From a virus (taxonomy: Duplodnaviria; Heunggongvirae; Uroviricota; Caudoviricetes), in the IMG/VR virus record IMGVR_UViG_2778260992_000009, positions 1 through 10,428 of that record: a DNA stretch of 10,428 nucleotides; one strand, written 5' to 3'. This document shows, one piece after another, positions 1 through 6,000 of this stretch. The position numbers are program-made. Position 1 is the first letter of the stretch. The number at the start of each line of letters is the position of its first letter.

Positions 1-3000
1 CTACGGTAACCGCGCATTCAACATAGCTACCTGTTCGTCGTTCATGTCATCAATCCACATACCGTAAATTTCATACACCATCTGCGCAGTTTCATGCCCC
101 ATCTGGCTGGCTATAAATGCCGGGTTCGCTCCTGCCGTCAACAGCCAGCAGGCAAAAGTATGTCGCGTATGGTACGGATTACGGCGGCGAATACCAGCAC
201 GTTTTACAGCTGCATTCCATCTCGCTCCCAAACTGCTTACCGAGTAATAAGGTTTCTGTTTTCCGTTACACACCCTGGGCATGAAAACAAAATGCAGTTT
301 TTGCTTTTCAGTTCTGCCGTACTCCCGATGATAAAAAGTGATTTCGCTTTTGCGATGATGCCCGGTCAGTTTGTATTGCTCCTTCAGTGCTTCAAGAGCC
401 GGCTGCAGTAATGTTACCGTCCGGATCCCGGCATTTGTTTTTGGGGGACCGAACATATCAAGTATCGTCAGGTTTCTTCTGACATTCACAATTCCCTTCT
501 CGAAATCCACATCCTCCCATGCCAGAGCAGCCAGTTCCCCGTGACGAAGCCCGGAGTAAACGGCAAATTTCCACAAGTTCTGGCTCTGTCCTTTTTCACT
601 TTCCATTAATGCATTGAATTCTGTTTTAGATAACGGATCAGGCTTTATTCTGTTTCGCTGTAATTTTTTTACTCCTTCAAATGGTTTGGTTGATATAAAT
701 CCCGACTGATACGCAAAACGTAACAACGAACAGAGCAGAGCGATATAGTTATCAACTGTGCGCACGGTTCTTCCTTTTTTGTTGGATCTTGGATTATCCA
801 GGTAAAGCGTTTCTCCATGCAGTAGTTCATTCCGGTAGTTTAAGATATCGCTATAACGAATATGTGATATTGGGGTACTCTCACAAATTATTATCCTGAG
901 TGTTTTTAATTGTGATTTCGTTTTCTTCATTGTGTTTGTTGTTAACTCTGTCTCTTTAATTTTTGTCCAGATATCACAAAGCTCCCCGAATGTTTTTATG
1001 ACCTTCGTTGTCACCATTTTTGCCCCAGTGCTGGACTGGGGAAAACGTCTTAAATACTCGAATTCGCCGGAATTGATTTCGTGAACTATCAACGCTCTTA
1101 AATTCCCGGCCTTTTTAATATTACTGTTAGTAACCTCCCAGCCTTTCAATGTTTCCCGACATCGTTTTCCTCGAAACATGAACCAGATGCGAATGTATTT
1201 TCCCCGAATCTCGACACCTGTTGGTAATTTAGACATATCATGAGTCTTTGATAAACTGATTTATCTTCGGATAGTTGTACCAGATAATCCCTCGCTTGCT
1301 GTCTGGCTTACCTAAAGGAGATACTCGTTTGAAGTGGAAGCCTTCCACCCAACAGTTCTGGCGGTATGCTTCAATTTGTCTGGCCCCCAGACCAGTACGA
1401 AGCATCAGACCGTATTCAACCATCCACTCTTCATTAAAGATCACTTGTGCCATCGCATCACCTCTGGCAGGCGCCAATGTTAGACTGAAATTGACGCCCG
1501 ATGTTGATTATTAATAATCAGCTATGAAGTTTTAATTTGAATACAATGCAATTCACGAGGACTGAAGTTTCTCGCAATTAAAATTTATCAGTTTTACTTT
1601 CTGCTCTCTGGAAACGCCTGCTTCTTTTTTCCCTGAGAGCATTTTTTCGCATTCCGATTTGGTTAACTTTGTTTTTGAGTACCTTGTCCAGTTAGTAGGA
1701 GTGCCACCTTCCTTTTCAATAGTGGCGGTAATTTTATACATGAACACCTCCATTATTATTTCCAGTGGTTCGTTTATTCCATCGTTCGAGTGCTTCTTTT
1801 TCACTTCCACCATAGCCGGTTCGGGATTCGCATCCGTTACACTTCGCGCGGTAATATCCTGAAATGGCTTTCACCGTTACTGATGGACAACCACAAAAAG
1901 GGCATGGTTTGACTTTTTCATACCGCATTGTTTTTTCTCTCATATAATAAAATTTTGTGATGGCGGTGAGGCTACACCGCCAAAGTCAATATCAGGAGCC
2001 GATATATTCTGGTTTCATATCTGTCAGTGTCGTTTTATACGCCTCATATAATTCACCCAGATGTGGCCGGGCAGCATTCAGCGTATTTTCCAGAGCAGTA
2101 AATTTTTGTTCTGCTTCTGGATCACCTGATGAAGGAAGGTCATTTATCATCTTCTCGATACTGGCAATAGCATTGAGACGGTGATGACGCCGAACCACTT
2201 TTCCTTTAAGCTCGGCAAAGAATTCGCCGATCTGGTTTTTCTGATCCTCTATCTCTTGGCGTAATGCAGTGGTTTCCTCAGTCGTGGCCGCGCTTTCGAC
2301 ACGCTGCCGGAATTCATCAATCCACGCTTCGTCAATACGCTGTTCGATGGTTTCTGTTCGCTGCTCGCTTACCTCGCTATAATTCTGTACCGGCACAGGA
2401 TTGATGATTTTTTCCTGTGGCTCTTCCAGTTCGTCCGGGGTATACACGCCCAGGATGACGTCAGGACAATAAAGGCGAGCCCAGTATTTCAACGCCAGAT
2501 AGGCGAGCTGTTGTTTCGGGTTTGAGGTCCATAAAGGAGAATTACGCGTAATCACGCTGGAAAGAAACACCGGTTCTCCCCAGGTAATCTCACTTTCACC
2601 GCGAAGAACTGCACCAACTCGAACTGAGAGACCATACTCATCTTCACTGGTCCAACATGGGATCGTTTCTTTTTTCTCATAGATTCCGCCTCCTTTGGCC
2701 GTTTTCTTAACGGTCTCCACTCGGGTGCGAGAGCATTTCTCCCAGTCTCCCTCGTACTTGTAATGGAAGCGGCCTACAATTGCACTTGAGCTAGAGATCA
2801 CAGCGTTAACCAGTTGTGCTTCATAACCCAGAACTCCGTTTACCAGGTGTGTTTTCTGAGCCACAGCGTAGGGGTTCATGCCCCATTGCATGGCTTGCAT
2901 GATGATTGCCATGCAGTCGGCAGGATTTCCGCGAAGGTGATCGGGAACTGTGACGGTGGCCTGTGACATCAACCCGGCTACTGCCTGAAGTTGCGTCAAC

Positions 3001-6000
3001 GCCTGAACGTTAAAAATAGTGTTACTGGCAGAAATGGTATTTGGTGTCTGCTCTGTCGTGATGATATTGGTATTTTGCATGGTCAGGTTCTCCATTAAGC
3101 CAGATGCAGTGCTTCAAGACGACGAAGATCAAAGTCGTTTAATTCGTCGGTATAACTTTCGGTAATCGGTGCTGGCCAGTTGTTTGTCTCTAGGGCTTCG
3201 TTTATCTGGCGTAGCGTCCGGCGATATTCCTGTCGACCAAGTTCCAGGAGTTCCTGCGAGGCTTCCACGACAGCCACCCAGTGATAGCCAGCATCTTTGT
3301 TGACGAAGATCCAGAAAAATTTGTCCAGGTTTGCCACATCGCAATACATTGCGGCGCTGAGGTGATAATCACGCTCAATAATTTCACGGTGCAGGCGATC
3401 TTTAAGTCGTTCCTGCCGCACATAACCGAGGCTGACTGACTTCACGTCAGCGCAAATGCTTTCGTATGGCAGCCGGATTTCGATATCAGGACGGACCCTG
3501 ATTTCCAGCCCGGTTTCTTCATCAAACCCGAAATAGCTGATTTCAGATTTGCGATCCGGGTGGTTGAGTAGCCTTGCTGCATCAGTATTGTTTTGCATTG
3601 CAGCGTGAATATTTTTTGCCTGTTCATACATATCCGGACTGATAAACGTTTTCCCGGCGTTTTCTTCTTGCTGGCGTTTTTGCCAGTCCTCCAGTGTCAC
3701 CAGTTCCGGGCGAATTTTCCGTGCGATTTCGGTTAATTGCTCTTTTGTGCCACTGATGTTGTAAGGCAAAGATTTAGCACGTTCTTTTTTTGCCAGTTCT
3801 GGGTCTACAGTTTCAATTTGATCCAGAAGCTGCTCCCGTGCTCCACTGGTTTTCAACAGAGGAGGGAGGCTTGCGTTGTATTCTTTAATACAGGCTTTCA
3901 TTGCTGATGCTGTATGTTTTTCCCCCTCAGGAATACGCCGAAATTCCACCGGAAGCGAACCGTAAAGGATGCCTGTTTCTTCGGCCCCAGCACTTACAGA
4001 CAGTGGCTGTATAAGAGTGCTGTTGTAGCTTTCGATCCACTCTTTCATCTGCTCTGGTGTCATCAGTGCTGGCAGACTGGCATTGTGTTTTTTAATGATG
4101 GCGATCAGTTCGTTAGAAGTAGTAACCACATATTCAGGAACCGGTACCGGAATGGCATATTCATCAGCGAATTTATCCGTTTCCAGAACATAGCTGTGAA
4201 TGATCCGCCCACGCAGCAGTGCATCACTTTCCTCGTTCGGAATAGTTCCGGCAATGTGCCGCCCGTGGTAATACATCAGGCTGATACGGGCATCCTTCAG
4301 CATCGTGCTGCTTATTCCGTTGGCGGAGTGATAAACCTCGTTCGGGAGGTTTTCATAGCGGCCTGGCTCGAAATATGACGGCCACATGATTTCAGTTGCT
4401 ACAGGAGCTGACGCTTCACCAGTTTCATCACTGCAATCGCGATGCGGATCGCTGCCAGCATTCTCATTGTGCGGATGTTCAGCGCCTTCCATTTCCTCCG
4501 GATCATTTTCCTTAGCTTCAACCTGATTCTCTTCATCGAATGTTTCCTGGTATGTTGCGTCGCCCATCACCGCACCACAGTCAGGGCAGTTGCCGCCGCC
4601 GGTCTGACCGCAGGCGGCGCAGACTTTTTCCGGTTCCTGTTGCGCTTCTGGTTCATTTTGTCGCGCATTTTGGCCGTTTTGTTCCGATTTTCGGTCGTTC
4701 TGTTCCGTTTTTGGCTGATGCTGGTACACAGAATCGCGGGTCTGGATCCCCTTAACCCATTTCGGATCATTTGGGTCGCTAATCCCTTCAACAAATTCTC
4801 CGCGATAGGCAGCCAGTAATTTGTCTGCATCGACAGGATTTTTGGGCGGAATGTTTTTCCGGGCTTCATGGAGTTCTGCCCGCAGTTTCTGATATTTCGC
4901 ATCAACAGAATTTACCTGTGACTGAGCATCCAGCGGCTGCGTGTCCTGATGATGTTCAGTTGCATCCGGTTCCACTGTTTCAGCCGTTGCCTGTTCATCT
5001 GCCATTGCGCAAGATGGTTGCGGTTTTTCTTCATCATCCTGTTTTTCTTCTTCTGTTACACGCTGCGGCATCGGGGCAGAGGAGCGACTGCAGGCAATAT
5101 CCACGATTTCCGGATCAGGGTTGGCATGATCGGTTTCAGTCAGTACTTTGTTCAGATATTCAGTGACGTGCGCGGGGATGACCTCGATCCCAATTGGTGC
5201 TTCTTTCACGGACGCAACCACGATGGCGCGGGAATAATCCAGCCCGCCAGGCATGGTGATGAATTTGTCGCGGAAAACAGAAAAGGGCGGTTTATTTTCA
5301 GCGATAATTTCCTCAATGCGTTTAGCGTGTGCAGGATGAAGGTTATAGATGTCCACGTCCATTGAACGGGCCAGTACGCCAGTGGCTACATCGCGCGCCA
5401 GTGACGTCAGATCGTGGACGAAACCTTCGCCGCGATCGGTGAGGTTCCCGCCGCCAGCATTAGCACCGGAAGCCGTGCGAGTGATGCGTGAAACACGATT
5501 CCCTTTTCGCCATTCTTTTGTCAGAAGACCGCGATCAATGTGTTCGGTATCCAGCCAGGCTGAAATGAAATTCTTAAATTCATAGGGCTGATGTTTTTTC
5601 GTGATAGAGAAAACTGCCTTAATTGCATCAGTCAGGCGGAGCAGGGCGGCATTATCCAGAGTTGTCGGTTCTGCCATGCCGCGTATGGCCAACAGCAGAT
5701 TCTGGACATAGCTGTTTTCCTGATCCATCTCAAGAGCAGTGATGTGTTCGCGTTGTTCACGGGTGGCATGATGCAGGTATTTCCGATCCCCGGCCGCATA
5801 CGTAAAAATGTGCAGAAGACGCTGTGTGAACCGCAAAGTGGCTACAGAGACTTCGCAATCCTGGCAATCCCCGTGGGCGTCTGCCTGCGCGTTTTCTTCC
5901 TGGCCCCCCGCCAGTTCTTTGGTTTCCTGAGCATTATCATGGTGGTGAACGTCGTCTGGCGCTGCTCCCGGTTTTAGTTCCCAGGTCATGGAGTCTTTGC

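Follow-up and report, generated by a model that had tools for sequence, protein, structure and literature searches.

The 10,428-nt stretch of viral DNA analysed here (the window; positions 1–10,428 of IMG/VR record IMGVR_UViG_2778260992_000009, Caudoviricetes) carries, on its minus strand, a recT gene placed directly downstream of recE in a recombination module of the Rac type. The product of this gene is an already known and annotated RecT-family protein of the Gifsy type, as opposed to a member of a new annealase family. We consider it likely that this RecT and the Gifsy-type nuclease domain at the C-terminus of the adjacent RecE form a cognate two-component recombinase, and that the two entered Rac together as a single cassette. 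Beyond this, the extra helical domain at the end of RecT may, as a more tentative proposal, be what matches the annealase to its own nuclease.

Along its whole length the window shares 99.3 % identity with Escherichia phage Rac-SA53 (KU052037.1), a 52-kb entry submitted as a complete phage genome, whose recT (annotated as ‘recT, recombination protein’) is 100 % identical to the window open reading frame (ORF); our literature search returned no paper describing phage Rac-SA53 and one incidental mention of it. The neighbouring genes are those of the Rac prophage (intR, xisR, a DUF1187 gene, ralR, recT, recE, racC, ydaE, kilR and the immunity region), and the identical RM11911 Rac locus is integrated next to ttcA. 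When the window was aligned to K-12 Rac by blastn, positions 1–1982 matched at 95.5 % identity and positions 4400–5536 at 90.6 %, with no match between the two. The 2417 bp thus lacking DNA similarity to K-12 Rac comprise the RecE nuclease domain and the whole of recT. Their left edge falls 9 nt past the recT stop codon. On the right they end at RecE residue ∼613; both RecE proteins are nearly identical as far as this residue, and in the 3H4R alignment it lies ∼20 aa before the point where the crystallised nuclease domain of K-12 RecE begins. As the replaced DNA forms a single block, and as RecE identity drops sharply at its border, we conclude that the nuclease domain and recT were exchanged as one unit inside Rac. 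Of 5426 complete E. coli genomes, 196 carry the cassette, and in each of these it spans both genes; the K-12 recT type is ∼9 times commoner, being present in 1749. Moreover, mEp237, SPN3UB and a further 55 enterobacterial loci combine the same types of nuclease domain and RecT. An earlier, sequence-only reading of the window had proposed that RecE and its annealing protein form a cognate alternative pair, an idea that gains support from the cassette boundaries and this linkage, as well as from the covariation described below.

The 1048-aa RecE (3095–6241) matches Pfam Exonuc_VIII (E-value 2.4e-67) and exceeds the cut-off of the NCBIfam equivalog model NF007259 (1354.8 bits versus 1269), which identifies it as RecE/exodeoxyribonuclease VIII. 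Compared with its K-12 counterpart it is 95 % identical over aa 1–100 and 88 % over aa 236–612, but only 17 % globally over the nuclease domain (aa 613–1048; ∼29 % in the locally aligned stretch), in keeping with the divergent RecE C-terminus that had been described from the sequence. The domain nevertheless belongs to Pfam DUF3799 (PDDEXK-like; E-value 6.5e-13), phmmer ties it to the K-12 RecE crystal structure 3H4R (E-value 2.4e-7), and residues P918, D919, E921, D932 and K934, invariant in 53 homologues, align with the PD...D-x-K motif of K-12 RecE. It is 51–52 % identical to the exonucleases of mEp237 and SPN3UB (‘Gifsy-1 RecE’-like), the N-terminal regions of which differ. Within the nuclease domain, an insertion at ∼3570–4140 (RecE aa ∼700–890) is absent from both K-12 RecE and the 270-aa DUF3799 nucleases. 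Within it, a segment of ∼69 aa is duplicated in tandem, recognisable by I-K-K/E-H/Y-N-A-S-L-P at aa 720 and 789, and a Pfam search with the insertion gave no significant family (Stk19, E-value 0.009, fell below its cut-off); its presence coincides with that of the C-terminal domain of RecT. A second mosaic patch of recE, at 5537–5944 (aa ∼100–235), is without DNA similarity to K-12 Rac; the protein stretch that it encodes is 21–23 % identical to the K-12, RM11911 and O145 RecE proteins between flanks of 88–96 %.

That the RecT of the window belongs to the RecT family is established by several lines of evidence. The 367-aa ORF that had been read at 1992–3095 is present, and its product matches Pfam RecT (PF03837) with 127.3 bits against a gathering cut-off of 24 (E-value 7.4e-37; aa 41–227, profile positions 2–191 of 198), as well as PHROGs phrog_561, ‘RecT-like ssDNA annealing protein’ (E-value 3.8e-153), over aa 3–366, i.e. 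over its full length including the C-terminal domain. The core has the Redβ/RecT/Rad52-type annealase fold. Furthermore, recT adjoins a 5′→3′ exonuclease gene, recE, on the same strand, an arrangement repeated in 55 related loci. A search of 5.8 billion proteins returned >6500 homologues, the closest 120 of which are 58–100 % identical and 336–386 aa long, under names such as ‘RecT family recombinase’, ‘recombinase RecT’, ‘Gifsy-2 prophage RecT’ and the legacy ‘enterohemolysin’. In complete E. coli genomes the Prokaryotic Genome Annotation Pipeline (PGAP) names it ‘RecT family recombinase’ (362 aa), and recT is 99–100 % conserved in 28 such genomes. The Pfam and PHROG matches make the protein a RecT and not a replacement for one; the description ‘non-canonical’, standing ‘in place of RecT’, therefore does not hold for a gene already called recT, and the profile comparison with RecT, ERF, Rad52 and Sak4 put forward alongside that description placed the protein in the first of these, with no ERF, Rad52 or Sak4/RecA-like family among its Pfam (E-value ≤ 1) or PHROG (E-value ≤ 0.01) matches. 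The same reading was right that this is not the 269-aa K-12 RecT, to which BLASTP found no similarity (best E-value 38). K-12 RecT hits the same PF03837 model (E-value 9.7e-56; domain at aa 53–244 of 269), but at 362–367 aa and without pairwise similarity the window protein does not qualify as its orthologue.

Behind the core, a linker precedes a C-terminal domain. The linker is the least conserved stretch of RecT in the homologue alignment, with indels, and the predicted structure has a per-residue confidence (pLDDT) of <50 at aa 214–251. The C-terminal domain, when modelled alone with AlphaFold2, is predicted with high confidence (pLDDT 95.2; predicted template modelling score, pTM, 0.84) as five helices. 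Among 36 homologues its invariant residues are R263, E295, L296, K297, K299, R303, E314, I317, P321, F332, E336, L339, H345, L349, D359, P362, E363 and Y364. Thus, the helical extension of ∼100 aa that had been suggested is borne out, at aa ∼256–364, by both structure prediction and conservation. On its own the domain is 44–45 % identical to the corresponding part of Gifsy-1 and Gifsy-2 RecT (E-value ∼1e-22), with further relatives in SPN3UB, FSL SP-016, mEp237, HK225 and Klebsiella prophages. It is restricted to the C-termini of RecT-family proteins (47 representatives among 1.84 billion proteins), and the Pfam RecT domain was present in 10 of 10 tested proteins carrying it. Three proteins of 546–756 aa (P0135, P0136 and P0137) end in this domain and combine pieces of RecE (Exonuc_VIII or DUF3799) with a partial RecT domain; proteins of this kind are probably in-frame deletion fusions in decaying prophages.

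The pairing of this domain with a nuclease type was surveyed in 80 loci taken from one-genome-per-species contigs. In 55 of these, a large RecE whose nuclease domain measures ∼430 aa comes before a RecT with the C-terminal domain; in the rest of the domain-bearing loci there is a nuclease remnant, the contig ends, or a nuclease is missing. In 13 loci, a 270-aa DUF3799 nuclease encoded on its own comes before a RecT that lacks the domain. Such compact pairs, found in Pantoea, Erwinia, Xenorhabdus, Photorhabdus and Proteus prophages (e.g. survey loci L073 and L058), resemble the window pair in their RecT core (48–67 % identical) and in having a PDDEXK-like nuclease gene immediately upstream of recT, often with an ATGA overlap. 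They differ in that RecT is ∼290–330 aa with a short, unrelated C-terminal tail, and the nuclease has neither the RecE N-terminal region nor the insertion. No crossed combination of RecT type and nuclease type was seen among the intact gene pairs of the survey.

Covariation, measured as the correlation of pairwise-identity matrices over the 53 loci with both parts complete, was strong when the C-terminal domain was set against the nuclease (r=0.80), in contrast to core and nuclease (r=0.35) and core and C-terminal domain (r=0.33). With the core held constant, the partial correlation of C-terminal domain and nuclease was 0.77, compared with 0.16 for the core. The window belongs to a minority clade of nuclease and C-terminal-domain alleles, together with the Rac prophages of O145 and O55 and loci L017, L019, L042 and L047; when this clade was removed the contrast persisted, at 0.76 for the C-terminal domain and 0.35 for the core. 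By segment, RecT aa 236–367 correlate at 0.53–0.80 with every part of the nuclease domain, whilst aa 101–235 reach only 0.14–0.37. Mean pairwise identity per segment was 0.49–0.63 in the C-terminal domain versus 0.54–0.73 in the core, which puts the domain among the more divergent parts of RecT. Simple linkage does not account for this pattern, given that the two covarying parts have the core between them, and selection for a matched nuclease and C-terminal domain would be the most economical reading of these alignments.

Individual loci illustrate the same dissociation. The Rac prophages of O145:H28 and O55:H7 are 99 % identical to the window in the nuclease domain and 82–84 % in the C-terminal domain, versus 58–59 % in the core; mEp237 is 84 % identical to the window in the core, versus 51 % in the nuclease domain and 39 % in the C-terminal domain. 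In the two Rac prophages (L007, L008 4302–5366; O145:H28 RM12581 and O55:H7 DEC5A) only the N-terminal part of recT has been swapped (window 2214–3100), corresponding to aa 1–194 in O145 and aa 1–294 in O55. The mosaic break, at 3100/3101, falls exactly at the recE/recT junction, so that nuclease domain and RecT C-terminus are kept; judged from these comparisons, the O145 and O55 variants are natural core-swap chimeras.

A mechanism consistent with these data begins with replacement of the K-12-type unit of Rac by the 2.4-kb ‘nuclease domain + recT’ cassette, which left in place the Rac-type N-terminal 612 residues of RecE and the flanking ralR, xis and int. The resulting recombinase would comprise a 5′→3′ exonuclease together with a single-strand annealing protein, in which the N-terminal Redβ/RecT-fold core would bind and anneal single-stranded DNA (ssDNA), followed by the putatively disordered linker and the 110-aa helical C-terminal domain. 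The latter may dock RecT on its own nuclease domain through physical contact, and in this way RecT would be loaded on the 3′ overhang during resection by RecE. Such docking would be analogous to the binding of λ Exo by the C-terminal domain of Redβ, without any detectable relation in fold. That the C-terminal domain is a dedicated docking module for the insertion-bearing nuclease, unrelated to that of Redβ and, as one half of a matched pair, co-evolving with its partner, the core being freely exchanged between pairs, is a proposal to which we give somewhat less than an even chance. For the Gifsy type, recET orthologues of Gifsy-1 and Gifsy-2, when activated (derepressed) by mutation, suppress recombination defects (Lemire et al., PMC3121763); beyond this study, our literature search returned no other functional evidence for this type of RecT.

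Several alternatives to this interpretation were weighed. An annealing protein of another family (ERF, Rad52-like or Sak4) that took the place of RecT would fit the lack of BLASTP similarity to K-12 RecT, and NCBIfam likewise yielded no recombinase model, but only spurious coiled-coil-like matches far below their cut-offs; hhalign of the family alignment against K-12 RecT was also not significant (E-value 0.61, with an effective number of sequences, Neff, of 1.9 in the alignment and a single sequence as the template). It is, however, contradicted by the Pfam RecT and phrog_561 matches, and is in our view very improbable. The legacy name ‘enterohemolysin’, or ‘RecT family enterohemolysin’, borne by homologues that are 43–65 % identical, would instead make the protein a phage-encoded haemolysin; the name goes back to the cloning, in the 1990s, of phage fragments that made K-12 haemolytic. 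The domain content, a RecT core plus a soluble helical bundle, speaks against this, as does the location of the gene, always within a recombination module directly after the exonuclease gene, and more recent annotation gives these clusters as ‘RecT family recombinase’, leaving a haemolysin barely credible. Both readings were rejected on domain, fold and context evidence. A different kind of alternative is that the pair is the decaying residue of a cryptic prophage and no longer functional; K-12 Rac is annotated as such a prophage, and related loci do show decay, in the form of nuclease remnants (L036, L059 and L082), a truncated RecT (L045) and RecE–RecT deletion fusions. In the window, however, both ORFs are intact, and neither the nuclease motif residues nor the invariant positions of the C-terminal domain have been lost; the near-identity to a record deposited as a complete phage and the conservation of the gene across complete genomes likewise make decay improbable.

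More weight attaches to the possibility that the C-terminal domain binds the host single-stranded DNA-binding protein (SSB), or mediates RecT oligomerisation or filament capping, with no docking of the nuclease and with the pairing a by-product of gene linkage. Were linkage of this kind the cause, the core would be expected to follow the nuclease no less closely than the C-terminal domain follows it; the opposite was seen in both the simple and the partial correlations. The C-terminal tail of SSB is nearly invariant among Enterobacterales, and the C-terminal domain is one of the more divergent parts of RecT; in addition, presence or absence of the domain goes hand in hand with the nuclease type. 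We therefore regard this explanation as unlikely, albeit one that deserves to be kept in view. Some results nonetheless weigh against the docking and cognate-pair interpretation itself. Covariation of identity matrices is not phylogenetically independent, and could reflect recurrent exchange of the core at conserved flanks rather than selection on a contact. The link between Gifsy-type and K-12-type RecT rests on the Pfam model and the fold: besides the hhalign result, a Foldseek search of the PDB starting from the full-length model (pTM 0.36) gave nothing significant, and phmmer of the 367-aa protein against PDB sequences gave nothing at E-value ≤ 1. Lastly, our literature search found no experiments on this RecT or this RecE–RecT pair, the Gifsy genetics concerning proteins that are ∼60 % identical.

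The position of the recT start codon bears on how the two genes of the proposed cognate pair may be expressed. The junction reads GCT-TAA-TGG-AGA-ACC-TGA-CCA-TGC, so that an ATG overlaps the recE stop codon as TAATG, as had been noted from the sequence; this overlap is real, but its ATG is probably not the initiation site, because the conserved N-terminus of 36 homologues begins at the residue aligned with M6, and because the overlapping ATG sits inside the Shine–Dalgarno-like TAATGGAG, 9 nt upstream of the M6 ATG. PGAP likewise gives a protein of 362 aa. In the 55 related loci the usual junction is TAA-GGRG-N7-9-ATG, that is, a stop codon followed directly by GGGG or GGAG and, 7–9 nt on, the conserved ATG. 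The real start of recT is thus probably the M6 ATG at 3080, 15 nt after the recE stop codon. At this spacing close translational coupling of recE and recT is likely, with the two probably translated as a coupled pair; the Shine–Dalgarno-like GGAG abuts the recE stop codon. The coordinates of all features are collected in Table 1.

Table 1. Features of the recE–recT region, in window coordinates
Feature	Position	Strand	Remarks
recT (Gifsy type)	1992..3095	minus	Longest ORF 367 aa; likely true start ATG 3080 (M6), giving 362 aa
RecT annealase core, DNA-binding and annealing domain (predicted activity)	2390..3011	minus	aa ∼29–235
Variable linker, predicted disordered	2330..2389	minus	aa ∼236–255
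C-terminal helical domain	1995..2329	minus	aa ∼256–367, ∼110 aa; ends in conserved motif D-M-K-P-E-Y
recE stop/recT start junction	3080..3100	minus	GCT-TAA-TGGAG-N9-ATG; recE stop 3095–3097, GGAG Shine–Dalgarno-like motif, conserved start 3080
RecE nuclease domain, Gifsy type	3095..4405	minus	aa 613–1048; PD-(D/E)XK core, ∼140–170-aa insertion relative to K-12 RecE
RecE N-terminal region, Rac/K-12 type	4406..6241	minus	aa 1–612; variable patch aa ∼100–235
Replaced cassette	1983..4399	minus	2417 bp without DNA similarity to K-12 Rac; RecE nuclease domain and whole recT

Among known systems, the window pair is closest in type to the RecE–RecT of Gifsy-1 and Gifsy-2 of Salmonella Typhimurium and their relatives (SPN3UB, FSL SP-016, mEp237 and HK225), with which it shares a large RecE with a C-terminal nuclease domain of ∼430 aa and, within a few nucleotides of it, a RecT of ∼370 aa with the same helical C-terminal domain. 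Towards these relatives RecT is ∼60–64 % identical overall, with 39–45 % in the C-terminal domain, and the nuclease domain is 51–52 % identical. Unlike the Gifsy pairs, that of the window is grafted on a Rac/K-12-type RecE N-terminal region inside a Rac prophage, and its nuclease and C-terminal-domain alleles are those of the minority clade. With RecE–RecT of K-12 Rac (866 and 269 aa; nuclease structure 3H4R) it shares the backbone (cassette flanks of 91–95 % DNA identity), the gene order, the Pfam families (RecT PF03837 and DUF3799) and the abutting or overlapping exonuclease and annealase genes. In contrast, there is no detectable pairwise similarity between the RecT proteins, that of K-12 having ∼25 residues after the Pfam domain and hence no room for a comparable domain, and the K-12 nuclease domain, of ∼260 aa and thus ∼170 aa shorter, does not have the insertion. 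The pair differs from λ Red, in which the C-terminal domain of Redβ has been seen bound to λ Exo (PDB 6M9K), in that the exonuclease is of another family (λ Exo trimer versus DUF3799-type RecE) and in that its C-terminal domain, which has five helices in 110 aa, is larger; between that domain and the λ Orf-like, exonuclease- and SSB-binding domain of Redβ no similarity was detected.

Some further observations concern the surroundings of the gene. The plus-strand ORFs at 1957–2184 (75 aa) and 2814–2966 (50 aa) were treated as chance antisense ORFs. The toxin gene ralR (1734–1943, minus strand) lies 48 nt downstream of recT, inside the block that is 95 % identical to K-12; in K-12 itself, the antisense small RNA antitoxin RalA overlaps the ralR area. 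The immunity and early-regulator region (7984–9484) shows no similarity to the K-12 Rac stretch compared, apart from 39 bp, and contains a repressor-like ORF of 153 aa (8236–8697, minus) and two plus-strand ORFs (8799–9053 and 9064–9486); it is only 74 % identical to that of the otherwise close RM11911 Rac, which points to a different immunity type. A locus attributed to Actinobacillus phage vB_Apl-pPE4 (L006; PP818812.1, 388–4574) has a RecE 95 % identical to that of the window and a RecT C-terminal domain 84 % identical, which is unexpectedly close for a phage of the Pasteurellaceae (Actinobacillus pleuropneumoniae) and points either to an E. coli prophage present as a contaminant or under a wrong attribution, or to very recent transfer.

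As a gene, then, this recT is routine: it encodes a RecT-family recombinase of the well-populated Gifsy RecET type, already annotated in a phage genome on deposit. Its interest lies in the exchange, in which nature provides a clean case of an annealase and its exonuclease domain moving as one cassette, with the break exactly at a RecE domain boundary, which fits the known partner specificity of RecE/RecT versus Redα/Redβ. Recent work leaves open whether annealases of the RecT type bind their partner through the C-terminal domain (PMC11611040) and whether partner-interaction domains are shuffled (PMC12315714); the covariation found here lends computational support to partner binding by the C-terminal domain and to such shuffling, as a modest and testable addition. 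Should docking be borne out, RecET partner specificity would be portable by a swap of the C-terminal domain, and Rac would already offer natural domain-swap chimeras, in the O145 and O55 variants as compared with SA53, which could help in the design of portable recombineering pairs.

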